A stretch of 64,000 bases of DNA from positions 186,001 through 250,000 of the forward strand of contig NW_019028998.1 of assembly GCF_002105155.1 (NCBI RefSeq), written 5' to 3'. Below the pieces are notes generated by a model. That model saw only the letters and a list, made by a program, of their open reading frames with translations, made no database searches and was not told where the DNA came from. This DNA is from Lobosporangium transversale (lineage: Eukaryota). Positions 18,927-59,038 of this stretch are shown one piece after another (the stretch's first letter is position 1; each line of letters begins with the position of its first letter). Made by a program: the position numbers and the translations under genes.

Positions 18927-19556
18927 GTAAGAAGAGTGGACTAAAGTGTCATGGAGAAAAACGTGGTAGGTGACTAATGAAGACTTGGAAAAGATGAATG
19001 AGCAAGAATGCAATTAGACCAGATCAGATGCAATTGAGAAAAGACTCGTGAAGGTTAGGCGTTTGAATTGGGAAATAACAAATTTCTTTAAGCCCATAAA
19101 ATCGTATCAACGCCCAATAAGAACGTATTCAATGCATGAGATAGCATATCTCTTTCCAACAAAGCTATCACACTGAGGAAATGCAATTGATGTCCCATCA
19201 CCGAAGTGGATTACTTTACAACACAAGTTTTTGAAAGAACGTAAAAACCGTCAGTGGCACAGTAAACTCCTTTTGATGCTTTTGGGACTGAGTGAGCAAT
19301 TAACGTGAATCGTCCGCCTGGATCTGGCAAGGCAAAGCACTCTTTTTATTTGGTAGAAAGGATCCTTGGGACAAAAGCCAATAAGGATTGTGAGTAGCTG
19401 TGAATAGCAACGAAAGCGAAGAAGTTTAGACGATTCACAACATTTAAAATAAACTGTAACCCTTAAGAATAATAGAAAGCAAGGAAGACGATCACCAAGG
19501 ATAAGGGCGTTACTGAGTTTATGAGAAAATGCTATACAAGGAACCGCGATTGAGCA

Positions 19557-19887
19557 TTTTTCGATAACAAGGACCCTCAGAGTTACAGGATTTATTATCT
19601 ACACTTTACGAACAAAATGCCCTAAAGACTATAGACGACAAACAGTTACTGCTGTGCGAATCGTTATAAATAGGTTGGCCCATTTAAGGTCGCAAATAAC
19701 GCGGTATCTAATGACCATAGCCACATCGTTGTACTGCCACAATACAACATCCTGTTCATAAATCATATCAGCATTGAGTGGCCCCTTGATCCGCTGAGAC
19801 TTGTGCCACGGCTCTACTCCCTACTTGGTCTGTTGTGCGCAAAGGTCATCCTTTAGCTGTAGTCCTTAATCATGTCGAGTCCTTTGA
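19557..19887 (-). mobile_element. Decayed 3' end of non-LTR retrotransposon (distal copy, tRNA-Trp stack)
   Basis: Short T5 tail then cGATAACAAGGACCCTCAGAG..GGATTTATTATCTACACTTTACGAACAAAATG, homologous to the 3' UTR at 41272 onward. Adjacent ttataaataggttggcccatttaagg resembles the copy at ~40612-40640. 5' limit approximate. Confidence 0.75.
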
Positions 19888-20432
19888 TTTTTTTTTTTTT
19901 TTTTTTTTTTTTGGTAAAAAGGACCCAGGGTCATGGGATTTATTTCTCACACTCTATGAACAAAATGCTCCAGAAACTATAGTCAATAAACAGTTATCAC
20001 TGCACAACCGGCGAGAGCTGCTGCATCCATGATTTCATAAACCCTGACCGCCGTGGTTGGTACTTAAAGTCCACCTTTCCGACGTGGCCTGTTGCGCAAC
20101 GCGACAAATTATGCACTATCCGTAGCCATCAGAAACTTCATTCCACCCAGCCACTCCATCACGTCCAGTTTAGTTTTCCCAAGGTAGCTGTCCCGGACTC
20201 GGTTATCCGCGATCTTGTAGATTTCTTTTACATTCAGCTTCTGTCTTTGTCTGAGGGAAGGGACAAGGAAATCATTGCTACTACGTCTGTGCTCCCCAAC
20301 ACAGTTGCCTCCTCTAGCGCGTTTGCTCGTAGCAGTGATTCCACGAGTCTTTTCCCATTCAACGGTGACTTTACACCGTTTGTTCCAGATTTCTGTACGA
20401 CCGAATTCTTCTATGGCCTTGACGAAGCGCCC
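19888..20432 (-). mobile_element. 5'-truncated non-LTR retrotransposon (3' UTR plus last ~107 codons of ORF2)
   Basis: T25 tail 19888-19912. Colinear and highly similar (about 90% by eye) to 41259-41793. Encodes GRFVKAIEEFGRTEIWNKRCKVTVEWEK...KLDVMEWLGGMKFL. Homology stops at 20432. Confidence 0.93.
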
Positions 20433-20492
20433 ATGAACGTTTGACAAAAAGTTTTTTTTTTTCACGCACTTACACAAAAAAGATAGGGATCG

Positions 20493-20533
20493 TCAGGATG
20501 ATCACGTGCGGCTCTCGCTCTTGTTTTATACCC
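20493..20533 (+). promoter_or_regulatory. Upstream element of tRNA-Trp: TCAGGATGATCACGTG (E-box/CDEI-like) plus TATA-like TTTTATACCC
   Basis: CACGTG at 20503-20508 and TATA-like element at about -39 to -30; a matching arrangement lies upstream of tRNA-Ala. Confidence 0.45.
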
Positions 20534-20562
20534 TGTTGAGGCCTTCTAGGCTCCGGTTTAAT

Positions 20563-20635
20563 GGAGGATTGGCGCAATTGGCAGCGCGTCCGTCTCCAAA
20601 GCGGAAGGTCGGGAGTTCAAGTCTCTCATTCTCCA
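20563..20635 (+). tRNA. tRNA-Trp (CCA), intronless
   Basis: Cloverleaf: acceptor GGAGGAT/ATTCTCC, D arm GCGC/GCGC, anticodon arm TCCGT-CTCCAAA-GCGGA, T arm GGGAG-TTCAAGT-CTCTC; TTTT terminator at 20642-20645. Confidence 0.95.
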
Positions 20636-20655
20636 ATTTCCTTTTATAAAATGAA

Positions 20656-21246
20656 GGATTAATCTATTTGGCAGCCCATACCAAATATAGTAATTTTTGC
20701 CTCTATTTGGCAGCCTACTTCTGGGGGCTGCCACTTAACTTCGCACTCTTGGGTGGCAGCTGGGCTGCCAAATACATTACTTTTTTTTTTTTTTTTTTTT
20801 GATAAACAGGGTCATAACATCAGTGGTAAAACAAGCAGCGTTCTGTGGATACATTGCCTTGCACAGCTAATGCCGCCGGAGGTACTAAGGGCAGCGGCGA
20901 TGACATCTTCACAAAACAGCCTTCAATGTACACGGTTAGGGAATGGTTTATTGAAGACGTCTAGGTAGTAGGTGAGACGCGTTTGCTCCGAGCGAAAACC
21001 TCTCATAGGCATTGATCTCCAAATGGCACCTCCAAAACTGTATGAGCGACCTACTTGAAAAAAAAAAAAAAATAAATAAATAAATAAATAAATAGTTAGA
21101 GGCCAAATAGCCCTGGGTAGGCTGCCAAGTAAATAATGAATGTTATTTGGCAACTGGGCTGCCAAAGAGAGTCTTGAAAGTTGATTATATTTGGCAATGG
21201 GCTGCCAAATAATATTTAGCAACTAGGCTGCCAAATAGATTAATCC
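20656..21246. mobile_element. Non-autonomous TIR DNA transposon (MITE, Mutator-like), family 1
   Basis: Perfect 21-bp TIRs GGATTAATCTATTTGGCAGCC (20656-20676 / 21226-21246); exact 9-bp TSD TAAAATGAA (20647-20655 / 21247-21255); many subterminal TATTTGGCAGCC / GGCTGCCAAATA repeats; no ORF. Confidence 0.92.
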
Positions 21247-21270
21247 TAAAATGAAATGAAAACAACTTTT

Positions 21271-22070
21271 GATGGAGTTATTTGCACGACTCCATACACA
21301 CCTTATTTACATCGCAAATGATTTTTTATTGGGATGAAGTTATTTGTACGGCCCCCGTGCAAATATCTTTTTCCTTTTTATTGCACGGGAGTGTTTTATA
21401 TGGAAATGTCGGTACCCTTAGTGCTATAGGTAAGGTCACTCATTCCAAACCCAATTGGGCTTGCTTTGTCTGGAACTACTAGCAGGCGCCGAAGAGTAAC
21501 TTATTCAAGTGGGCTTTACGCTTTCTGGCGAATGCTAATAGTTGTAGTTATGTGATGAGTGCAACAAAGCATAGTATGTGACCAATCTAGACAACCTTCA
21601 CTGAGGATAATCCTATGTTGATGGGAAGCACAGGAGCTCCTGTTGAACTTGTTAACATTCAACAAAAAAGGCTCACTGCTGTAGACCAATGTATCTTTTT
21701 GGTCATAACATCCAGCTATAATCCTATAATCCAGTCACAGTAACGGCTAGAGATGCATCAATGTATTTATGTGATCCTAATGTTTCCTGCCTATTGATGT
21801 TTTTATTGAGAGGAAGCTCACCAATTAAAGGCGGATTTTTTCTTGAAGGCTGAAATAATAACTCCTCGTGCGAATAAAAAAAATATATTAATGTGTATGG
21901 AGCTGTACAAATGTCTTTTTCCTTCTTTATTTAGTCCCAGAGTCGCATGAAGAATAACAGCATCTACTCTGGGTTACGTATGACCTTGATAAGATAAATA
22001 TTCTGGTAGTATTTGATGCTTGTGTCGTGGAAGGCTTCCTGGTAGTGGTATTAAAGACTGAATTACATAC
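21271..22070. mobile_element. Fragments of TIR element family 2 (two left ends plus internal segment)
   Basis: GATGGAGTTATTTGCACG at 21271 and GGATGAAGTTATTTGTACGGCCCCCGTGCAAATA at 21332 (identical to 45754). 21928-22070 is homologous to 47158-47325. Confidence 0.8.
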
Positions 22071-23890
22071 CTGATAAATTCCCCCTATTTTGTCGGATAT
22101 GTGGGAAGTTCTCTGAGACGGAACAACATCTGCTCTTCAGTTGTCCCAAGAAGCTGGAAGTGTGGCAGGGCGTTATGAAGAAATTTTTCGGAGAAAACGA
22201 CTGGTCAGCCTTCCTACTGGAGTCGCTATTCTATGTCAACCCGATGAGGATCAATCCACCAACAATGTGCCTGCCTTCTTGTTCTTTAGTACCATCCTGG
22301 CAACAATCCGAAAATATCGCCATATCTGTGTCCTTCAAGGAGAAGACTTTGATGTGCCACGTGTCTTAGCCGGTATCGTATTTCCCTGAGGCAGGTATGC
22401 GAAGTAAGAGGTGTTAAAAACTATAGGGAAATATTACTTTTGTACACAAATATTTGTTTTTCATTTTGCATACCAACTAACAATGCCCTGCTTGTGATAG
22501 TTCAGACTTCGAGCTACCGAATACTATGATGTTAAGCAATAACGTTTAATAGCGAAGCGACGATAATAAAATACCTGTGGTTTACTATAGTACTATTCAA
22601 TTTGATAGGAGTTATATTCCTTCACTTATTATGGGCTTCAGATGGGAAGTTGATGATCTGCAATGAAAATATATGGCTCAGCACAATATCTTCTACAAAA
22701 GCTGACACTTAGATCATAAAATTGGACCGCTACTGTCGATATCCAATATCAAAACCAAAAATGCCATATGGTTTTAACGCTTCTTACTTTGCATACCTGG
22801 CTCAAGGAGAAAGCTCGTTCTACAATACATGTATTGGAGCATCTATGGAGCAAGAGCTTTTATATAGGCGGATCGAGGCTGATAGAAAGCAATGGTTTGA
22901 TTTGTCCGTTTTGAACTTCCATAACTGAGTAAATGACTAGGTATATGTATACTTTCCTTACCAATATTACAATAACAGTGATAGACCATATCCTCCCTAG
23001 CATTTCTTCCACCAAGATCAAAAGGCATCATGCAACCACCGTCCATTGCGACGAGGCAAGTCCTCGTTGAGATATTAAGGTAAAAGTAAAAAATTAAAAC
23101 ATTCACTTAATTCTGTATCCCATTCGTTCAGTAGATATTGTTTTATTATCAATCCGCTCCAGCTAATATTACAATGTTGTGGTCGATATCAAATATTAAT
23201 AGTTAAATATTTGTCATGATTTGGCTAATATTTTAAAGTTTCTTTAATATCATGGGTCAAATCGGATCTTTTGTGCGAAATACGTGTATGGCATAACTTC
23301 GTCCGTATAAAGGGCAAAAATTTCCATTATAAATAAATGAGTTCAAGATCCTGTATTGCCTTAAAACTTTTTTTCGGCGTGTGTATTGCCGGTCAAAATA
23401 AATAACCGAAAACTAACTAAACTAACTGCTATGGAGCCAATCTGACTTCTTTATTTCTCCAAATAAAAATAACTCTTGAAGACTTACACATGATCCTAGC
23501 GTCTGCTTGGTGGCTCCCATGGCATCATTTGATGGTGTTGAGGGCTTGATTTTTATCCGGTATGCTACATGAACTTACAATGTTTAAATTCATCAACCTA
23601 TGATATAGAGTGGAAGCATTATCTTACTCCTTCCTCGCTCGCTCGCTCCTCCCCAAGTTCCATTATTGTTATCACTACCACTTGTTCCTGTATCTTCCCA
23701 TCAACCTTCTTTTCCTGAACAATTCATCTTCTATCTATTCACTTTGAACTTTTAGCCCAGTCATTAAGCAATAAAACAAACAAACAAAAAAGCTCTCTTG
23801 TTTATACTTTTGCTGCTCTTCCCTTCTTTCGTTTCTTTTCATCGCCACTGTATTTCGCTTCCTTCTTTCCCTTTCACTCGGATATTGACC

Positions 23891-38402: not shown

Positions 38403-40503
38403 ATGTCTTCAACACTTCCGCAACACCCGACAGTCCCAAAGGGCACAGATATACCCGAACCAGTGGGAAAAATGGCCTATGCCAGTGACGACAGTCAACT
38501 GTTTATCCAGGGTGGCTCTTATGGTTCTGAAAACAAAATATCCAGCGCCTTTAGTCTTAATCTCACTTCCGACTGGTCAGTCGAGGATCCTGCTTGGAGT
38601 AGGCTTGAATTAATTGAAAACTTCTACGGCCAGTCAGGAGTAATGAATCTGGGACGCTTCATAGCCTTTGAAACCGGAAATAACCAAATTAATGTGTCTA
38701 TCTATTCCAAACACTGGGAACGACTAAATCTCTCTCCATCTTTCAACACACCCGACCCAGTGATTGTATCTCGTCAAGATGGGATGGTGTACTTTTTGGG
38801 CAAAAAGGGAGAGGCTCTCTTCATGGACACGAAAAATTGGACCTTTTCGAATTTTAAATCTCCTACATTTGATACATTTGAGCCTACAGGGCAAAGTGCT
38901 TCATGGTCAGCCTATAAAGAGAGCATTTTGATCCCCATCTTCAACGACACAGATGTTGACGTGCATATGTATAATACAAGCTCTCACATATCGCGACCAC
39001 TAAACACAGCTAAAAACCTCAAGATTACGCCTCGGACAGGCTATTGTTTTGTTCCATGTAAGGAGTTTGATATCGGCTTGAAGTTATGATGAATAGATTT
39101 GCAGGCATAATAAGCGAACCGTATTGCTTTTCATAACCCTTGGGATGTACTATAGGTAATGATGGGAAGCAATACTACCTCTTTGGAGGCAGAAACGACA
39201 CTGCAGTATTCGACGACTTGTACTTACTGGATTTGGAGGAAAATACATGGACGCAGCTCGATAACTCTCGCTCTAGTAGATCTATGATGGCATGCGCTGT
39301 CAGAGAAAAGACTTTGGTAGTTTGGGGAGGCAAGTCAACTTGATTGCAAACTACTTGGTGCACCATCGTATAAACTAGGGAAGAATCAAGTTTCTGATAA
39401 CTTTGAATCAACAATCCCTTTTTTTTCTGCGATTAATAGGTTTTTTAGACACGGATAGCACAGCTGTGTCGGATAATAAGCCATTGGTATTCAACGGTAT
39501 TGAATGGGTCACTAAGTACACTGTAACAGGATCTTCAGGAATACCCACCAGGCCCTTTCCGTCCCCCGTAATCCCGTCAACACCCTCCAGCTCCAATGGC
39601 ATAAATGTAGGCATCATTGTTGGTGGCGTCATAGGAGGGGTCGCATTGATAGCACTTGTTGCAGGGCTATTGTTCTATTTAAGAAGGCAGAGGCATCGTT
39701 CTGCAGGGGGTAGCAAAACAACCGTCAAGAAATCAACGCTGAATGACGAGAGTGGTCTCCGAACCTTAGAATTAGGTGGCTACACGACCATCCCATCGCC
39801 CTTCATCTCGGATGAGACATATAACCCACAACAGATGACGCCCTACGCTGCACCGCATGTATCTGGACCGTTGCCGATGATAGAGCATGTTGCAGCATCG
39901 CGAGCGCAGCAACAGCAAATATCACCAGTTCTCTCTCGACCCATCGACACTCTATACCAACGGGATCAGTCGCAGATGTCACAAACCTCCGGAATATCGT
40001 ATGCTTCCATTATTCAGTCGCCATTCGAGGTAGAGCCTCCGGTAGGCCCCCAGCACCCGCTGCTCCAGCAGTCCAGGCATCTTCCGTCGCATCAAAATTC
40101 GCCCACTGGATATCCTTTACAACCAATTTCACAGCTACCAGCATCATCAAATTCATATGCAGGCCCCCTTGGCTACGGTGGGCAAGATGGCAACTATGAT
40201 GAACGGGTGGCAATAATGCCCAGGTCCATGGAGCCTGCTACCGTGGATCTGATCCCTATCAGTGCCAGTGAAGCGGGTGATGATGAAGGTAGCCAGGCGT
40301 CACGATCAAATTCAATAGTGTCCAGTCGATTACCTGAATCCGCAGTGCAATCTGCACCTACACGTATAAAAAGCCATAAAGTTAATAATGTTGAGGCAGC
40401 AGGCAATAGAGGTGACGATAACTGGCCAAATAATAATTTAAGTGGACCTGAGGATAGTCGACGCGACTCAAGCGAGTCACTTACGTATCTTGATATTGAA
40501 TAA
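38403..40503 (+). CDS. Kelch/galactose-oxidase-type beta-propeller, single-pass membrane protein
   Basis: LFIQGG, YYLFGG..FDDLYLLDLEENTW, LVVWGG blades; S/P stalk; TM IIVGGVIGGVALIALVAGLLFYL-RRQR; disordered tail. Start codon uncertain. Confidence 0.8.
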
Positions 40504-40525
40504 ATATTACATACGCCTCTCTTTA

Positions 40526-40896
40526 TTTTTGATAACCAGAGCCCTAAAGGTCATGGGAATTTTTTGCTACACTCTACACTATAGATAATAAACAGCTATT
40601 AGAAGTAGACTCTATAAATGGGTTGCCCTATTACTAAGGGCGCCCAGCCGTTCCATTACTGTCAGTTCTAATTGTCGCCGATAGCTCCCTCGCTACTCTT
40701 TGGTCAGCTTCCGCCCTGATCGCTTTCACGTCAGCTGTTCGTCGTTATCTCAGGGTAGGTCCTAAGAAATCACCTCTGCTACATCTGTGCTACCCAACAC
40801 AGGTACGTCCCCTGGCGCGTTTGCTCACAGAGGTGATGCCTTTAGTTCTTTCCCAGTCGACAGTGACTTTACAGCGTCTGTTCCAGATCTCAGTCC
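40526..40896 (-). mobile_element. Decayed 3' end of a diverged non-LTR subfamily (distal copy A, tRNA-Ala stack)
   Basis: T5 tail then GATAACCAGAGCCCTAAAGGTCATGGGA. Minus strand translates TEIWNRRCKVTVDWERTKGITSVSKRARGRTCVG*HR...DFLGPTLR*...ADQRV / LTVMERLG, homologous to the ORF2 C-terminus at 41470-41760, with stops and a frameshift. Confidence 0.88.
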
Positions 40897-40927
40897 TTTG
40901 CACCTCCAGAGTTCCCCAAGGGTTTGC

Positions 40928-41258
40928 TTTTTTTTTTTTTTTTTTTTTTTTTTTTTCGTGTTAACAAGAACCCACGGAAGCGAGGAATTTATTTCATAAT
41001 CTCGCTCTAAATCAATTATATCGCCCTCAAATCCACTGGCATGTGGATCCAAATCTTGCGGGGTTGGTCTGAAACTTCTACTTGGATTCCGTCAAACTTT
41101 GTGATCATCGCTGTCTTAGTCGAGTCGGTGGATGGGGAGATGTACCGCTGGTTCGGCCGGGGGGTGGAATATATACCTAAGACGTGTGGCCAGCCAGGCG
41201 ACTTAGGGTAGTGTACCCACGATCTTAGCCTTAACGGAAAACACTAGGCTGCCTCGAA
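40928..41258 (-). mobile_element. Short poly(A)-tailed retroelement (middle copy B, tRNA-Ala stack)
   Basis: T29 tail 40928-40956 then TAACAAGAACCCACGGAAGCGAGGAATTTATTTC, related to the family 3' end and carrying AATAAA on the minus strand. The rest shows no visible homology to ORF2. Confidence 0.65.
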
Positions 41259-44200
41259 TTTTTTTTTTTTTGATAACAAGGACCCTCAGGGTCATGGGAT
41301 TTATTTTCTACACTCTATGAACAAAATGCTCCAGAAACTATAGTCAATAAACAGCTATTACTGCACAAACGACAAGAGCCGCTGTATCCATGATTTCATA
41401 AACCCTGACCGCCGTGGTTGGTACTCAAAGTCCACCTTTCCGACGTGGCCTGTTGCGCAACGCGACAAATTATCCGCTATCCATAGTCATCAAAAACTTC
41501 ATTCCACCTAGCCGCTCCATCACGTCCAGTTTGGTTTTCCCAAGGTAACTGTCCCGGACTCGGTCATCCGCGATCTTGTAGATCTCTTTTACATTCAGCT
41601 TCTGTCTTTGTCTGAGGGAAGGGACAAGGAAATCATTGCTACTACGTCTGTGCTCCCCAACACAGTTGCGTCCTCTAGCGCGTTTGCTCGTAGCAGTGAT
41701 TCCACGAGCCTTTTCCCATTCAACGGTGACTTTACACCGTTTGTTCCAGATTTCTGTATGACCGAATTCCTCTATGGCCTTGACGAAGCGCCCTGCCATA
41801 TATGTAGCTATCCTTGTTGTTGTCTTGAAGCCAACTTTCCAACTCTGAGCAATGGACTTGGGCGTAAGTCCATGGTAAATGTCCTGCACAGACCAATCTG
41901 GTGTGTGCTCTCTCTCTTCCTCATCATCGCCGTTCCTATCACCATGGCGTCGTACTTCTCGCACACCATCGATATGCATCTCCAGAGTTTTCCAAATGTA
42001 GTCCTCCTCTGCCGCAGTAAAAGTTGGCTCTTTTGTCCTTGGTGGGTCTACACCTCTCTCTCTGGCCCTTTGTGCTTGCTCCTGCACTGCTTTCAACTCT
42101 TTCCTCCATGTCCTCTCCCCTATCACATTCACATTTTGGATTATCTCCTTCCACTTCTCGGCCTGAGTCTCCATCGTCCTTGGACATCTCCAGATGTGCG
42201 ATGTGTCTTCATCCTCTGTCCCACACACTCTGCAGTTGCCATCTTCATAAAGGTCCGGCCTCCAGTGTCTCATATATGACTGTGTAGGCAACATTCCATG
42301 GAGTTTCTTGATTCTGTGCGCTCGCTTTTGGCAGTCCGCTGGGCTGGTGAAGAGTCCTTTCGGTAGGTTGCTATCATGAACAATGTTCATAGTAGCTCGC
42401 CAATCAATTTTTGTCCAATCCTTAACATGCTCCTGCGTCCTGTTCTGGGCGATCCAAGTGTGATGTGTACGAGTTGTTGACTGTAACTTAAGGATCTGCC
42501 TTAAGTCATCTTCCGCTGGTACACCGTTGAACTTTGCATGGCAGTACATGTCATTATGCTCCGTTATGTTGATATCCCATAGCTCGCCATAATGTCCATG
42601 TTTGCTGCTTCGTCCGCTTCTTCGTTCCCTCTATTGCCGGCATGTCCTTTGACCCACTCGACCGTGACTTCCGATCCTTGTTGAATAAATGCGTTGTGTA
42701 TAGCTGCCCACCATACTGCATACGGTGATCTAATACGTTGTCGCAACGTGCTATCCACTCTGCCTCGGACCAATGCTCGGAATTGAGTCACAACTGCGCT
42801 GTTATCAAGTCGGATTGTCATAGGTCTGTTTCGTGGGCTGATAAGTATTCCTGCCAACAAACCAGCTAGCTCTGCCTTTGTCGAGGATGCGTTGCCTGCT
42901 ACTCTACCAGATAGCGCAGTGTAAAACTCACCCTCTTGTGTCTGGACTACCACACCAAATGCCAACTTACTCTTTCAGTGCCAATATCTTTGAGAGATCC
43001 ATCCGTATAAATGACATTACCCGGCTGGGTATTGTACCGTTCCCTTTGGCGTTGGATTTTCTCCTCGGTATTGGCACTAATGATAACTCCATTTGTGTCC
43101 CTGGCTAGGCCTCTGTTGACTTCAGGGATCACTTTTAGGCACGGTGTCTCGTTGGAATCCAGGTCGACTTTTGCTCTCCTTAGCAGAGCTTGCTCGCTCA
43201 GACCCTCATATCTCCTTGTGTTCTGGGTCCGGCGTCTCCTCGCTTCTTCGCGGGCTCGCATGCGTTCACTATGCCTTCGCTCTCGGTCCTGGTGGCGTTC
43301 TGCTCTTCTGACTATGGCATCTAACTTTGCTCTTTGTCGCCTAAGATTATGTTCTCTGGTTGCTCTGCGCGCCTCTTTCATAACAGCTCCTCGTCTCTTT
43401 TTCCGCTCCTTCTGTTGATCTAGAATCCACTTAATTCCAATTGGTGGCTCAACAGCTTGATTAGCCGGTGATACTGTCAAAGTTCTGTTCGCTGCCTCAT
43501 CTTTTATGAATTGGTTGAGTGCACGAATCGCTTCTCGATCTTCGTCTTCTGTATCCCCGTCTACCGAGCTGACATAACTACTGTCGCTGTTGCTGTCATC
43601 ATCACTGACGTCTAAGAGTGCCAGTTTCCTCCTGTTCCATTCTCTTGCATGCCTACCCACATAATCGTTGTCGAAGCAAAAGTTTTGAAGTTGGTTGAAC
43701 CAGAATGGCGAAACTTTAGGCCCTCCGTAACGGGTCCTGAATGCGTGCCATGAGATCATGTCCTCCTTATCATCCGTAAGTATTTGATCCACAAAGTATA
43801 CCATACGCTTGGTGAGCGCCTTCCATACGTGTGGTAATTCTCCGTTTAGCCATTTCCATGTCGAGAGAGCGTTGTGTGGGAGACCAAATTCGGCTGCGAT
43901 CGATAGGTCGAAAGTAATGTTACGATTCTTCATTTCTTCACAAACATTCGATATAAAGTTGTGGCGATACTTTTTGACACGATGTGGCTCCAAAGTTGGC
44001 GAGACTTCCATCTTATTCCTGTGCTGCAGCATCAGTACTCGTGTCCGACATATCCGTCCCATTACATTGCTGTCATTAAGTCGAAGCGCCAGGGTAGATA
44101 TTTGTTCTTCCGCTTGAGCGTTCGCCAAGTCTTTGATGGCATACAATCTATTGTGGTTCATAGTGCTGTTTGGCGTAGTTGATGGCATACGTGCTTTCCG

Positions 44201-45472
44201 CTTACACAGTGACATATACTTACCAGTCATCTTCTGTAGGAACGTTGGTGGCAACATTTGGGCCGAAATCCTATACAGCACCTTTGGGATGAGCACATTA
44301 TTGACAATATACGTTGTCTGCCGATCTGTCAGGGCTTTGGACCGGAGAATGTTACAGGTCGTTTCTATTTCCTGCTCCACTATTTGCTGTGTTGCTGTTG
44401 GATTTCCTGTTGCTGTGACCCAAACACCAAGAATCCGTACCGATTCATTCTTTTCCACTGGTCGGATCTCTTCTGTAGGTGTCCCAAATTTCAGCGTGCT
44501 CCTCCTATCCTGCTTGCTGTTGATACAGATGACCTGCGTTTCCTTGGCGTTCACTTCCACCCCGTTAAGAATGAAGAATGTCGTTGCAATGTCAAGTATC
44601 TCCTGCATATGTGCTTTGGAGTCCGATATCCATGTAGTATCATCCACGAAAGCAAGGCCAGTAACTGATGGTGTCCCTCTTGGTCCCTCTAGACTATATC
44701 CAGTGCTACTGTCTATAATTTCACACAGGAGTGCATCATATGCTACTCTCCATAAAAGCGGACATTCCACTCCACCTTGATCCAAACCGCACTCTGGATG
44801 ATACTCGTCAGTTGGTCCGTATTCAGTAATCACCCTGTTCACTTTGGAAATGGCGATGTTTTCACATAGGCGTATGAACTGTTCAGGGACCTGGAGCCGT
44901 CTTAGTCCGCGAGAAAGCATCCCATCGGGGGCGCAGTTGACAGAGTCGAAACACCGTTTCATGTCTTGGAGCACAATCCACTGTTCTTTCTTGAACTCTC
45001 TTGCGTCTTCCATTGCCGCTTGCAGGATATGGATTGGATCCTTAGTGGTAGTACCTTTAAGAACAGAGAAGTTTGGTCCTCGTAGAATATCGTGCCTGGC
45101 CATGATCGCGCTTAACCTATTTGTTATTACTGCAAACATTATTTTCCGTGCGTGCTCCAACAAAGCTATCGGCCTTACCTCTGCCATGTTTCCTGACCAT
45201 TCTGGAGCTTTTGGTATGCAATAGAGGAGCCCCGTCTTCCAATCCTTGGGGACGTCTTCTTGCACGATAGTGGCACTTATGATTTGGAAGAGGATAAAGA
45301 GCCCCTGCGGTCCTTGGTGTTGGATCATTTCGTTCGTAATGCCTGACACACCAGCTGCCTTGTTTTTGGGTGCATCCAGGACCACAGCTGAAAACTCATT
45401 TCTGCTTGAGTCACAACTATCTATGAACAAAGGGCTTGCCCATCCTGACCCGAGCGGAGCAGTTGAGTATAT
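41259..45472 (-). mobile_element. 5'-truncated non-LTR retrotransposon: RT + RNase H + CCHC zinc finger, poly(A) tail (proximal copy C)
   Basis: T13 tail 41259-41271 with AATAAA ~30 nt inside. RT motifs PKNKAAGVSGI, RPIALLE, QDMKRCFDSV, GLDQGGVECPLLW, AFVDD, RILGV. RNase H YTDGS, SSTKAEL, LDN, WVKGHAGNRGNEEAD. CRVC..EDTSHIWRC. No endonuclease or ORF1 present. Frame open to ~45472, so the 5' junction is approximate. Confidence 0.95.
41470..45472 (-). pseudogene. Retrotransposon ORF2, split in three by two 1-nt frameshifts
   Basis: ORFs 42947-45430, 42564-42965 and 41470-42549 join into one polyprotein if one base is added near 42963 (ERVS/xAFGVVV) and one near 42601 (EAA/KHGHYGELWDINITEHNDMYC). 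Confidence 0.85.
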
Positions 45473-45518
45473 TCAGAATGTCACGTGAAGCCGCTTGAAC
45501 TATCATAATTATATACCG
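45473..45518 (+). promoter_or_regulatory. Upstream element of tRNA-Ala: TCAGAATGTCACGTG (E-box/CDEI-like) plus TATA-like ATTATATACCG
   Basis: CACGTG at 45482-45487 and TATA-like element at about -39 to -29; same arrangement as at tRNA-Trp. Confidence 0.45.
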
Positions 45519-45546: not shown

Positions 45547-45618
45547 GGGGTTGTAGCTCAGTGGTAGAGCGCTCGCTTTGCATGCGAGAGGCCCGGAGTT
45601 CAATCCTCCGCTGCTCCA
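45547..45618 (+). tRNA. tRNA-Ala (TGC), intronless
   Basis: Cloverleaf: acceptor GGGGTTG/CTGCTCC with the G3:U70 Ala identity pair, D arm GCTC/GAGC, anticodon arm CTCGC-TTTGCAT-GCGAG, T arm CGGAG-TTCAATC-CTCCG; T6 terminator 45626-45631. Confidence 0.95.
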
Positions 45619-45648: not shown

Positions 45649-45730
45649 GGATAAATCTATTTAGCAGCCCATATCAAATATAGTAATTTTTGCCATTATT
45701 TGGCAGCCTATTTTTTGGGCAGCCAAATAA
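45649..45730. mobile_element. Left end of TIR element family 1 (truncated)
   Basis: GGATAAATCTATTTAGCAGCCCATATCAAATATAGTAATTTTTGCC..TATTTGGCAGCCTA aligns with 20656-20717 in the same orientation; no right end seen. Confidence 0.85.
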
Positions 45731-45753
45731 TGTTTTGCAAAACTAATTTGAAA

Positions 45754-47784
45754 GGATGAAGTTATTTGTACGGCCCCCGTGCAAATAAATTTTTGCTTAT
45801 AAAAAAAATTATTTGCACTGCCCCGTACACACTCTATTTACACTGCTCCCCCCGTACAAATAAAAAAAAGTTATTTGCACGGGGGGTCTTTTTTTTATTT
45901 GCACGGGGTCTCTTTTTCATCTACAAGCAGCAACGTGTATCCTACAGACTACATGATTCTGGCTTTATATAAATAAGTGGAGGTGAGTTTAGAGTAGAGA
46001 GGGGTCTGGAATTATTACTGGTGGAAGTTGCAGCGCCGTGGGAGCTGCCAAACAGCTCATTTGTGACATACAAAAATACTACCATTAGACCCATATAGCG
46101 TATACGATGATTTAAATTACCACTCACGTGGGGCAGACAAGAACCCTCTCTTTGTCCTCCTTCTTAGTTGGTGCAATGTTTTAACCTAATTGATATAACT
46201 TATTATGTAATATGGAGCTAAAGTTCAATAAATTTACCCTTTTATTAATGAGGCAATGTGGATAATCACTGAAGTTTTTGGGCAGTACAGGCTGAGGGAA
46301 AACGGCAAGAAATAAGATTGAAGACAGTGCTTCTCTTCATTACCATTTCAAGTGATTGTACAATATGAAGCTGGTCCTTTAGACGCAGTGAGCATCTACA
46401 TGTGCTGCTGAGTATGCAATACTGCGTGCTAAAGACGAACCAAGGTAAGTTGGCTATGATAATAAACTTGGAATGTAATGAGACAAAACTAAGGATTGTT
46501 GCGATTAGCAGTCATTTATATGGGTTTTTACTATAGCTAAGGTTTTTACCCTTTTTATTTAACGAAGATCCCTGGATCATAATAAAGACATCTTTTTTTC
46601 GTTCTCGCTAATTATTATGACCCTGGCATATTTCAATAACAGAAAAGAATATTTATGTCTCTTTTCTATCACTATTAGTCACGGTTATGCTATTAAAGTA
46701 TTTTAGCCACTAAGATATAGAGATATAGGTGATTGTGCACGTTCGGCTTTGAGTGCGAACTGTCACCAACTATCAAAAGACAAGTAATATCGGGTAAGAA
46801 GATAGATATTCCACAAAATAAGCTGAGGTCTACCCATTGCATTTTGATGAATTTGATAAACAGAAAGGGAAAAGAAAGAGAGTAGGTAGTAACACGGCAC
46901 GCTATACATCGTAGAAATGAGTATGATTGTATGATTGTTTGTATATCTACCGAAACAAACTACACGTTAGAGGTTCCTAATAACTGAACTCATCGTTGTG
47001 TGCTTAATAGTGTACGGAAATACCTAAGATATATGCACGCGTTAAATGAAAGAAAGCATCAGGGAACCATCCACAATCTATAACAATGCAACCAACAAAA
47101 GTGCAAAGTAAAGCTGCATAGTATATTTCAATTATAGATAGATCATTTGTAATTCTGTATTTAGTCCCAGAGTCGCATAAAGAATGCCAACATCTACTCT
47201 GAGCTACATACGACCTTGATTAGATAAATATTCTGGTCAGTATTTGATGCTTAGGCAGCGGCTCTAGATCTAAGCCTGTGTCGTGGAAGGCTTCCTGGTT
47301 ATGGTGTTTAGGGCTGAAATAAAGACCCCGTACAAATAAAAAAAAAGACCCCCGTGCAAATAATTTTTTTTTATTTGCACGGGGGGAGCGGTGTAAATAA
47401 GGTGTGTACGGGGCAGTGCAAATAGATTTTTTAAATATTTGTACGGCCCCCATGCAAATAAGAGGTGTACGGGCCCGTGCAAATAAGAGGTGTACGGGCC
47501 CGTGCAAATATCTTTTTTCAATTTGGAAAAGATTGATTGCCTTGTTGCACTCACCATGTAATTACAAATATTAGTGTTTGTCAGAAAGAGTAAAACCCAT
47601 ATGAATAAGTTGCGCTTCGGATAGAGCGACGACAATTGGACTTGAAATGAGTGACTTTGCTTACAGTACCAAGGTATCAACATAAAGAAACACCCCGTTA
47701 TATATATATATATATTTTTTTTTATTTCCATGGGAGGAACAGTGTAAATAAGGTGTGTACGGGGCCGTGCAAATAACTACATCC
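45754..47784. mobile_element. Non-autonomous long-TIR DNA element, family 2 (probably nested copies)
   Basis: Ends GGATGAAGTTATTTGTACGGCCCC (45754) and GGGGCCGTGCAAATAACTACATCC (47784). ~45800-45920 is an inverted copy of ~47316-47435. Repeated GTGCAAATA/TATTTGCAC units, including 25-bp tandem units at ~47452-47510. No TSD and no intact ORF. Confidence 0.8.
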
Positions 47785-48280
47785 AAATATATTGTAAAAA
47801 TATGGTCGCCGTCGCTGCAAAGGAAAAATGGGTCCAAATGAGAACCACCCATTGCCATTTTTATTGTGTTTACTGTCTTCATCCTGATTCGCTGCTGGCA
47901 TTATACATGTCTTCTCTCAATGGCGCGGTTTTATTGATCTTTCATAATAATCAACATGCATTGCAGCGACGACAAAAAAAGGGCGGCTCAGTCTAATCGC
48001 ATTACCAATAGTGAATATTAATAACTAATGCTTCCTTCTTGCATTCTTGAGGAGGAAGAGCTGTCATATATTTCGTCTAAATGGACATTATCAACAACAC
48101 ACGCAGTATACAAAGCAGTTTTCATACAGCGATACAAGATCCTGTTCTGATATCCTATTGCTAATTTATCCTGCGGATCATGTCTATTCATAAAATTGCT
48201 TTCTTATAGCTGGGGCATAAAGAGATCAAAAAACTCGCTGCATGATTATTTAACCAAGGCGTAATATTTTAATGCAATGC

Positions 48281-56654: not shown

Positions 56655-59038
56655 GTTGGTTATTGCCGCGCTGTCAACAAGCTCCCGTTACCTCCTGCTT
56701 TCGTGTCCGATACCTCTACTCTTCTACAAAGACATACCCGTCCTTGCTGAAGGCTTGGAGGTAGAATGATCAACGGATGTTCGTGTACAAAATTACAAAC
56801 GCTGTGACCCGCCATCACACTGCGATAACAGAATGCTTGGCACAGAGTGCATATAACCCTTTTGGTTTAGCTATAATAGATAATTGAGGGAATGAGCAGG
56901 TAGGAGAGGGAGAGTGTCAACCAGCATTCATTAGTTATCGACAGCTTATTTATAATCCCCTAGTTCGTATCACTTCTAGGGCGGGGATATTATTAGTGCA
57001 GTTGCTTTTTGAGGTGGTATAGGCACTATGGGCTACAGCCCTTGTAGATCCAAAAGCTCTAGGTAAGCTGTTGAGGCCGTACTTCAAAACCTCACTTCCT
57101 AAGGTAGGCCATCAAGGGCCTTCAACGGTTTGGCAGATAAGTGCATCACAGTTCTGGGCGGGAATAACGTTCGGGTCTTAACAGTTTTTTGTAATTAGCA
57201 CGCCTGCTTCAAATCCATATTCTCTGCCCGTTCAGCTGTACCAGAGGAGGCATGTCGCAAGCGTATACTGCGGACCCAGCGGCCAGTAGCCAGGTTCGAT
57301 AAGGTTTTTCATTTTGCTCATGTAGAGATATTCCTTGACCCTTGCATTTTCTCTTATGTTTCTAGTTCCTTAAGGCACTTTCCGGTACGCCTAAGCGCCT
57401 GAACCCTCTTTGATGCGCTTACGGTGAATTGCCTTTTCACTAGCTTCGGTACCGCTCAGAAACAGAGCAGTATTTCAGATGCTAAAGTCCGCCTTGACTC
57501 GCCTTTGTTGGCATGGGTAATATATATCTTACCGCAAAGTGGCGTATACTTTCCGGATACTCATGAAAAAGCACGTCTGAATGTTTACACAAACACGATA
57601 TCATCAAAATTTGACCGAATCCATATCTAGGACCAGAGTTAAATTTTTGTTTAGAAATGGCTACGAACAAGGGGTGGTCCTATACATATATATTGCAAAA
57701 GGCCCCTTCAACGAAGCTTCATAGCGACGTCCTAGGCTCTTTGGTTTCATCTCCTTAGGTAGCTATATTTGGTTTATATAGCACAGGCAGGGATCGGTGA
57801 TGGAGACCATAACCTTTCCTTTGAAAAAAGTGTCCAAAGGCTATGGATACCTATCTTCTACTCGTGAATGTGCAGAGTGAATAATAAGGATACTTTCCAA
57901 CTTTCTATATGCTTTGATTAAGAAGGTTAACTCAGCCCTACTGTAATTATTTAATCCTACTATAGGCGTCAAGAAAGCTAAGACTCAAAACAGTCAATAG
58001 TGCACTCTACTGAGTCTCATTGCAATTGTCAAAAGAAAAGGAAAGATAAGCGTCGATGGTGATATCATCTATTCAATACTGAACAGTGGTATATGTGCGT
58101 GATAATCTTTTACAGTGAAATGGTGTGAGGTGCTTGGATGCCAAAGAGAGCCGCAAACCCACAATCCAACAGTCAGACGCTTTCAACGATAAATATTACA
58201 AAAACCATATTGCGCTCTGTGAACAGCCGTGATTGATCAAGGAAGAAAGTCGATTTTTTGACCAACACATGCGAAATTATCTATTATAGCTAAACCAAAA
58301 GGCATATACAATTGAAGCAAGCATTCAGCCGTTATCGCCAAATAGCATAACTGCTGCGCCAAAGTGAAGATGAGAGACGGCACGAAGACGTGAGGCAACA
58401 AGGAGAACCATATAGAGGTTAGTCCAATCGAAACGAGCACTGCGGCAGGGAAGTTGGCCCTCTCCATTGGCTACGGTCCTAATTCAAACAGCATCAATAT
58501 AACAGGACCCTCTAGAGCTGATGAAGCTGTACAGATGGAAGAAATATCAAGAGCAACTCAAGAGGTCCAAAGATGAGATGCGTCCAAAAATGCGATCCCA
58601 AAAAGGACAAAGAGGTGAAATAGGGAAGAATAAACTAGAGGATGTAGGTAGGAAAGGGCTGTCGTCAACCGATCGACGCATCTGATCACAACACTCGATA
58701 GCGGGACATTGAAGGCAATCGCTGATAAAGCCTCGAATGATCGCGTAGAGGTTGTTCGTTTTGGCTTTTGAGAGGTCATTGTTGGTGTAAGTGAGCTCCA
58801 TGTTTCCAAGGAGTGCCTAGAGTAGCAGAATTATGGTTATATGCACTCTGTGCCAAGCATTCTGTTATCGCAGTGTGATGGCGGGTCACAGCGTTTGTAA
58901 TTTTGTACACGAACATCCGTTGATCATTCTACCTCCAAGCCTTCAGCAAGGACGGGTATGTCTTTGTAGAAGAGTAGAGGTATCGGACACGAAAGCAGGA
59001 GGTAACGGGAGCTTGTTGACAGCGTGGCAATAACCAAC
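56655..59038. repeat. 204-bp near-perfect inverted repeat (56655-56858 / 58835-59038) around a 1976-bp spacer
   Basis: Base-by-base comparison shows one mismatch in 204 bp (GCCgCGCTG vs GCCaCGCTG). No TSD in the outer flanks; no long ORF inside. Confidence 0.93.

Follow-up and report, generated by a model that had tools for sequence, protein, structure and literature searches.

Stacked retroelement copies of several families upstream of two tRNA genes in Lobosporangium transversale

In the 64-kb window of the Lobosporangium transversale genome considered here (the whole stretch of 64,000 nucleotides that was analysed), retroelement copies are stacked upstream of both tRNA genes, and these stacks are genuine. 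The three copies at the tRNA-Ala gene, called A, B, and C from the outside in, belong to three different families, and A represents a separate lineage rather than an aged form of C. The original prediction held that the oldest copies lie outermost and the freshest next to the tRNA gene. This order is found in the Ala stack, where divergence amounts to 0.4% for C, at least 3% for B, and about 8% for A; the stack at tRNA-Trp shows no clear order. We consider it fairly probable that each new copy was inserted about 130–140 bases from the tRNA gene and displaced the earlier copies outward. The order of a stack would then likely record insertions among several coexisting families and not one subfamily series. 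The "subfamily succession" initially read from the flanks is too simple, as A groups away from C and from E, the innermost copy at tRNA-Trp, and B falls outside the LINE subfamilies altogether.

Architecture of the two stacks

ARAGORN finds two tRNA genes in the window, tRNA-Trp(CCA) at 20562-20636 and tRNA-Ala(TGC) at 45547-45618, both on the + strand, and a stack lies upstream of each. At the Ala locus, the outermost copy A (40526-40927) is a 5'-truncated LINE of a second lineage, the middle copy B (40928-41258) is a 5'-truncated, non-coding, SINE-like short element, and the innermost copy C (41259-45408) is again a 5'-truncated LINE; a spacer of 138 nt at single-copy contig depth (45409-45546) separates the 5' end of C from the tRNA gene. 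At the Trp locus, the outermost copy D (19557-19887) is a LINE or a non-autonomous partner of one, and the innermost copy E (19888-20432) is a 5'-truncated LINE of C's lineage, followed by a spacer of 129 nt (20433-20561). All five pieces lie on the - strand with their 5' ends turned towards the tRNA gene's 5' end, at both genes, and their poly(A) tails, seen as T runs on the + strand, are directed away from it. Practically no DNA lies between the 5' end of the outer copy and the tail of the next one at the three inner junctions (A/B, B/C, and D/E). The innermost 5' ends, defined as the points where the family contigs cease to fit (45408 for C and 20432 for E), differ by only 9 nt in their distance from the tRNA gene. 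DNA and protein searches of the 64-kb window with the pieces matched the family at these two loci only. Target site duplications were found for none of the five copies, the longest common word being 4-5 nt against a chance mean of 4.7.

On the outer side of the Ala stack, a host gene on the + strand, for which a membrane segment is predicted, has its stop codon (40501-40503) 22 nt before the tail of copy A, so that the stack would sit within or against the 3' UTR of that gene (window positions 40479-40525). Downstream of both tRNA genes (20656-22071 and 45649-47787), the same inverted-repeat, MITE-like families occur at very high contig depth, beginning 20 nt after tRNA-Trp and 31 nt after tRNA-Ala. 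Within them, 20656-20726 resembles 45649-45719 (89%), 21332-21376 resembles 45754-45798 (93%), and 21923-22071 resembles 47153-47327. Also downstream of tRNA-Trp, positions 22091-22279 (+ strand) give a weak tblastn match (E = 0.013) to a cysteine-rich part of ORF2 and are probably a piece of another LINE. Elsewhere in the window (56655-59038), 204-nt inverted repeats that are 99.5% alike flank 2 kb devoid of reading frames of at least 100 residues.

Families and individual copies

The measure of age was provided by assembled contigs from public runs under the same species label, aligned to both loci. The contig sets X1, X2, and X4 come from three studies, and the window itself may originate from any one of them. 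Contig depth served to separate collapsed repeats from DNA present once and was not read as copy number. A further run, X7, in which nearly all changes were C>T and G>A, a unique gene included, is probably a converted library and was left out. At the Trp locus, the unique flanks receive no cover from the contigs of X1, X2, and X4; this was not read as absence, and the letters of that locus consequently stand without an independent check. Outside the window, two related loci were retrieved from metagenomes (L001 and L002), and none from prokaryote genomes or viral contigs. Neither L001 nor L002 contains a tRNA gene.

Copy C consists of a T13 tail (41259-41271), a 198-nt 3' UTR (41272-41469), and a remnant of ORF2 in which Pfam recognises RVT_1 (E = 2.4e-19) and RNase_H (E = 2.2e-9). 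At 42600 and again at 42964 it lacks a single base that every contig there (X1, X2, and X4) possesses, and these frameshifts are either real or assembly errors. At its 5' junction, positions 45409-45480 are single-copy DNA in which the frame is kept open, and a 12-nt likeness to the LINE UTR at 45416-45432 is reached by 15/500 shuffles. The segment 45409-45480 may be junction material, which would bring the end of C up to 70 nt nearer to tRNA-Ala.

The L001 locus holds a full-length relative with 67% DNA identity to C. Its ORF1 gives weak RRM and zinc-knuckle matches, and a frame of 1931 residues contains Exo_endo_phos, RVT_1, and RNase_H domains. Taken together, C and L001 possess the characters of a LINE: a non-LTR reverse transcriptase, an APE endonuclease, ORF1, a 3' poly(A), and 5' truncation. 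A target site duplication, a further LINE character, is missing from all five copies in the window. The LINE in L001 starts with about 19 nt (912-930) of its own 3' UTR (8686-8704) in inverted form; this may be a real junction or an assembly artefact, as both ends of the contig repeat inner sequence.

Copy E comprises a T25 tail (19888-19912), a 196-nt UTR, and an open frame of 107 codons, and it is 94.4% identical to C over 535 nt. The high similarity and the T13-T25 tails originally ascribed to the proximal copies are thus present. A contig that is 1/286 away from C is 14/286 away from E (p = 0.0008), so E is either much older than C or a sister branch. Of the changes between E and C, 7 are silent and 8 are replacements (p = 0.03 against neutrality), which indicates that part of E's distance arose under selection, in an active lineage, and that its divergence from the majority sequence is not a pure measure of age. 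An additional small insertion at the T11 run 20452-20462, within the Trp spacer, was considered and found unsupported, as it matches neither L001, L002, nor the window.

Copies C and E cluster with L001, a LINE from an unrelated metagenome, apart from A (bootstrap 100, in an unrooted tree of five sequences). It follows that the split between the lineages of A and C is older than that between C and L001, and the distance from A to C is therefore uninformative as to when A was inserted.

Copy A is made up of a T5 tail (40526-40530, after TTTA), a UTR remnant (40531-40642), and the end of ORF2 (40643-40897), while 40898-40927 probably derives from further up the element. Its tail and flank (40000-40635) are matched with 0 differences by one contig each of X1 and X2. 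Its ORF remnant is shared at 191/254 positions (75%) with L002, 177/254 (70%) with L001, and 169/254 (67%) with C. The stops and the frameshift noticed at the outset are there: two in-frame stops, at + strand coordinates 40790-40792 and 40745-40747, and a single surplus base close to 40691. The second stop is a sense codon in all contigs at that site, and the extra base is absent in 38/38 depth units of X2. About 200 nt, running from the last 12 codons through the stop into the UTR, are gone at 40642/40643; a related contig departs from A exactly at 40643, and the deletion is thus private to A. Relatives of the A type occur solely as separate low-depth contigs, and no high-depth twin of A appears among the contigs listed.

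Copy D retains the last ten or so codons of ORF2, a stop (19853-19855), a 291-nt 3' UTR, and a T5 tail (19557-19561). It resembles the ORF end and UTR of L002 (66%, E = 2.6e-13), aligned to the long UTR of that locus. High-depth relatives exist for its 5' half; an 18-nt patch is not fitted by high-depth contigs, and 112 nt have no relative at 80%. A still older copy outside D, at 19345-19556, was rejected, since likeness to the UTRs of C and D is at chance level (100/500 and 91/500 shuffles). As first noticed, both outermost copies end in T5 and have a segment in common: A 40602-40642 scores 35 against D, reached by 0/500 shuffles, and stays at chance against C (100/500), E (384/500), and B (461/500). 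A shorter 3' UTR type, also attributed to the distal copies, is not borne out, as the UTR of D is longer than those of C and E, and that of A is short by deletion.

Copy B is an element of another kind. Its T29 tail (40928-40956) is followed by about 70 nt resembling a LINE 3' end and by a body (41027-41256) that showed no LINE ORF homology and no tblastn match. The likeness of this body to C is at chance level (96/200 shuffles), while its similarity to a short element in L001 is reached by 1/500 shuffles (control 131/500). That short element (L001 1-911) is non-coding, directly abuts the 5' end of the full-length LINE, and is, in its last 245 nt or so (663-905), 65% like the 3' end of its own LINE. 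A loose contig end continuing past B's cut at 41256 matches L001 near 135-150 in 15/16 letters, as judged by eye. In the dominant form of B's family, the UTR of C is joined to the B body, the joint from 41458 to 41027 reaching high depth in both X2 and X4. Copy B carries a different tail, found also in other copies (loose ends at 40988), and this difference fits an origin of B before the expansion of C. Being short, non-coding, repeated, and furnished with a LINE-shared 3' end, the family has the characters of a SINE, and its sequences suggest a SINE-like partner with changed tails. The head of the B family lies outside the window. In L001, a T-arm-like hairpin in the head (position 77) contains a perfect B box, which only hints at a tRNA origin; such an origin finds no support in Rfam, which returns no tRNA at E<=5, or in the fold, which is no better than that of shuffles (z = -0.26).

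Age order and mode of insertion

Copy C differs from high-depth X2 contigs by 17 substitutions and 2 gaps over 3946 nt (0.43%), and copy B differs from its own high-depth contig family by at least 7 substitutions over 230 nt (at least 3.0%) and a 12-nt gap. The nearest relative of A among the contigs listed shows 17 differences over 216 nt (7.9%, pairwise). Copy C is clearly the youngest at the Ala locus (C against B, p = 0.0002), and A is, less firmly, older than B (p = 0.03, a pairwise figure set against a lower bound). In the Trp stack, D differs from the majority sequence at 7/137 aligned positions (5.1%) and E at 27/482 (5.6%), so the two do not differ where they can be aligned (Fisher p = 1.0); D looks older than E only through its 18-nt patch and the 112 nt lacking relatives. 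The age order was tested at two loci with three and two copies, and a perfect order would arise by chance in 1 of 6 cases at Ala and in 1 of 12 for both loci.

The proximal copies were expected to be the freshest. This suits C by its divergence, but C has two frameshifts and E lies about 5% off the dominant family, so that the proximal copies are not fresh in absolute terms. Tail length, which was expected to follow rank, does not: from the outside in, the tails measure 5, 29, and 13 at Ala and 5 and 25 at Trp, and the youngest copy, C, has a shorter tail than the two older copies B and E. The window contains 41 A/T runs of at least 10, 17 of them of at least 20, and the tails discussed here are 3 of the 41. 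Tail length is an unreliable age marker here.

Insertion at a fixed distance, with older copies pushed outward, had been proposed from the start, and it fits the common orientation, the abutting junctions, the distances of 138 and 129 nt, and the order at Ala; the Trp stack yields no clear order. Such insertion would repeatedly use one site set by a complex on the tRNA gene, so that every newcomer comes to lie against the 5' end of its predecessor. An endonuclease-RT-RNase H protein resembling the one encoded in L001 would carry it out by target-primed reverse transcription, and the LINE-type 3' end of the B family could allow this family to be mobilised in trans. The tethering would be to a complex on the tRNA gene, either Pol III factors or a protein bound to a TCACGTG box. 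Contig joints reveal that copies abut at no fewer than two other places in the genome, one of an A-type piece followed by a C-type tail (40835 to 41266) and one of a D-type piece followed by a tail (19835 to 19557); such joints carry no information on nearby tRNA genes. A third joint, 41462 to 40597, could represent the reversed order. Among the 15 joints listed out of 29, none represents an empty site for A, B, or C.

The TCACGTG box occurs in both spacers, at 45481 (66 nt before tRNA-Ala) and at 20502-20508 (60 nt before tRNA-Trp), and there are 4 distinct sites in the 64 kb; the spacer pattern was noticed post hoc with n = 2. The innermost elements end 72 nt (C) and 69 nt (E) beyond the box, a spacing steadier than the distance to the start of the tRNA. 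A TATA-like run also lies near -33 in the Ala spacer and near -35 in the Trp spacer. Tentatively, these features might be combined into a more specific picture, which we regard as possible though not the likely one: an undescribed Mortierellaceae clade of RNase H-bearing LINEs, with at least two old lineages and SINE-like, tail-swapping partners, would insert about 70 nt upstream of TCACGTG, and each flank would be a one-way tape of the bursts of competing families. The site would then be set by a box-binding protein or a positioned nucleosome and not by contact with TFIIIB.

A looser explanation is that the open region upstream of tRNA genes is a hot spot that gathers or tolerates insertions at no fixed site, the order at one locus being chance. 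The sample of two genes, the inseparable ages at Trp (p = 1.0), and the gathering of inverted-repeat elements downstream of both tRNA genes would all suit it. We nevertheless judge it unlikely, since tolerance alone does not yield five of five pieces in one orientation, three gapless junctions, and two distances within 9 nt of each other.

Another possibility is that a single LINE lineage passed from an old type with a short UTR and short tail to the present type, so that rank would read succession and tail erosion would act as a clock. The UTR segment common to A and D and missing in C and E (0/500 shuffles), the T5 tails of both, and the restriction of A-type relatives to low-depth contigs speak for it. 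It is made quite improbable by the UTR of D, which is longer and not shorter, by the high-depth relatives retained for D's 5' half, by B, which is another kind of element, and by the tails of 5, 29, and 13. Moreover, A is closer to L002 and L001 than to C, and C and E group with L001, as parallel lineages would.

Insertion into the resident poly(A) tail, with outward growth and the youngest copy outermost, is very improbable: a T run does stand at every inner junction, and Zorro3 is described as integrating at poly-A without target duplication (PMC3956500), of which there is none here either, but it predicts the reverse of the Ala order, neither of the outermost copies, A and D, is the youngest (stops, a frameshift, and a deletion are private to A, against 0.4% for C), and the remaining 38 of the 41 long A/T runs in the window hold no such element.

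Comparison with known systems

The pushing outward of older copies that we favour is a behaviour published for TRE5-A of Dictyostelium discoideum (PMC5391098). In Dictyostelium, TREs form tandems at tRNA genes that are already occupied, and when a marked TRE5-A was followed, it inserted between a tRNA gene and the resident copy, 44-48 bp upstream of the gene (PMC5391098); the same placement between gene and resident is noted for natural copies in PMC5006619. TRE5-A is an L1-like, tRNA gene-targeted element with an autonomous form (TRE5-A.1) and a non-autonomous one (TRE5-A.2). The majority of TRE5 copies in a genome lie beside tRNA genes, and the targeting of TRE5 needs the B box and binding of ORF1 to TFIIIB. 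As in TRE5, the 5' end faces the 5' end of the tRNA gene in five of five pieces.

The two systems differ in distance, since TRE5-A lies 37-90 bp from its gene (Table 1 of PMC5006619), and 129-138 nt are found here; measured from the mature tRNA start, TRE5 is characterised by a range of about 37-98 bp, and both values fall outside it as well. The landing distance is two to three times that of TRE5. They differ also in ORF2, which ends in a zinc finger in TRE5-A (PMC5911963) and carries an RNase H here, so that the APE-RT-zinc finger order lacking RNase H does not apply. The host of TRE5-A is a dictyostelid and the present one a fungus, and no dictyostelids are among the named protein-search matches listed. 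The element works like TRE5 and yet stands outside it by distance and domain order.

NLTR-A of D. purpureum and NLTR-B of P. pallidum, which carry endonuclease, RT, and RNase H and lie upstream of tRNA genes, as described in PMC5006619, have the same APE-RT-RNase H architecture. Their distances of 2-6 and 39-64 bp are unlike those found here, and the likeness considered here is one of architecture; neither sequence is among the protein-search matches listed. Zorro3 of Candida albicans is a fungal LINE with poly-A at the junction and no target duplication (PMC3956500), as here. Its targets are poly-A tracts, from which an age order opposite to the observed one would be predicted, and RNase H is not among its domains listed there; in the present stacks, the Ala order is the reverse and 38 other runs are unoccupied.

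Among the matches listed, the closest named ones belong to RNase H-bearing LINEs of Mortierellaceae and Glomeromycota. Those annotated as hypothetical proteins in Mortierella, Podila, Entomortierella, Benniella, and other genera reach about 35-73% identity and mark the host as Mortierellaceae-like; matches in Geosiphon and Rhizophagus follow at 25-39%. The entries listed carry neither a family name nor a target preference. In the table of a 2018 review, tRNA-directed non-LTR elements are confined to dictyostelids (PMC5911963). A literature search for Mortierella, Mortierellaceae, and Mucoromycota, which covered mostly non-subscription papers, found no report of such elements among the papers listed, and a search for a published age gradient at tRNA genes found nothing on point in 20 of 35 listings.

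The ordering principle is known from Dictyostelium and follows from any targeting at a fixed distance, so that the gradient itself is to be expected. Novelty would lie in the host and in the elements involved, tRNA-directed non-LTR elements in a fungus. If the pattern held genome-wide, the order of the stacks would be a date-free chronology of several families, both LINE and SINE-like, of an early-diverging fungus, and the determinants of the landing distance could be studied in a second system.
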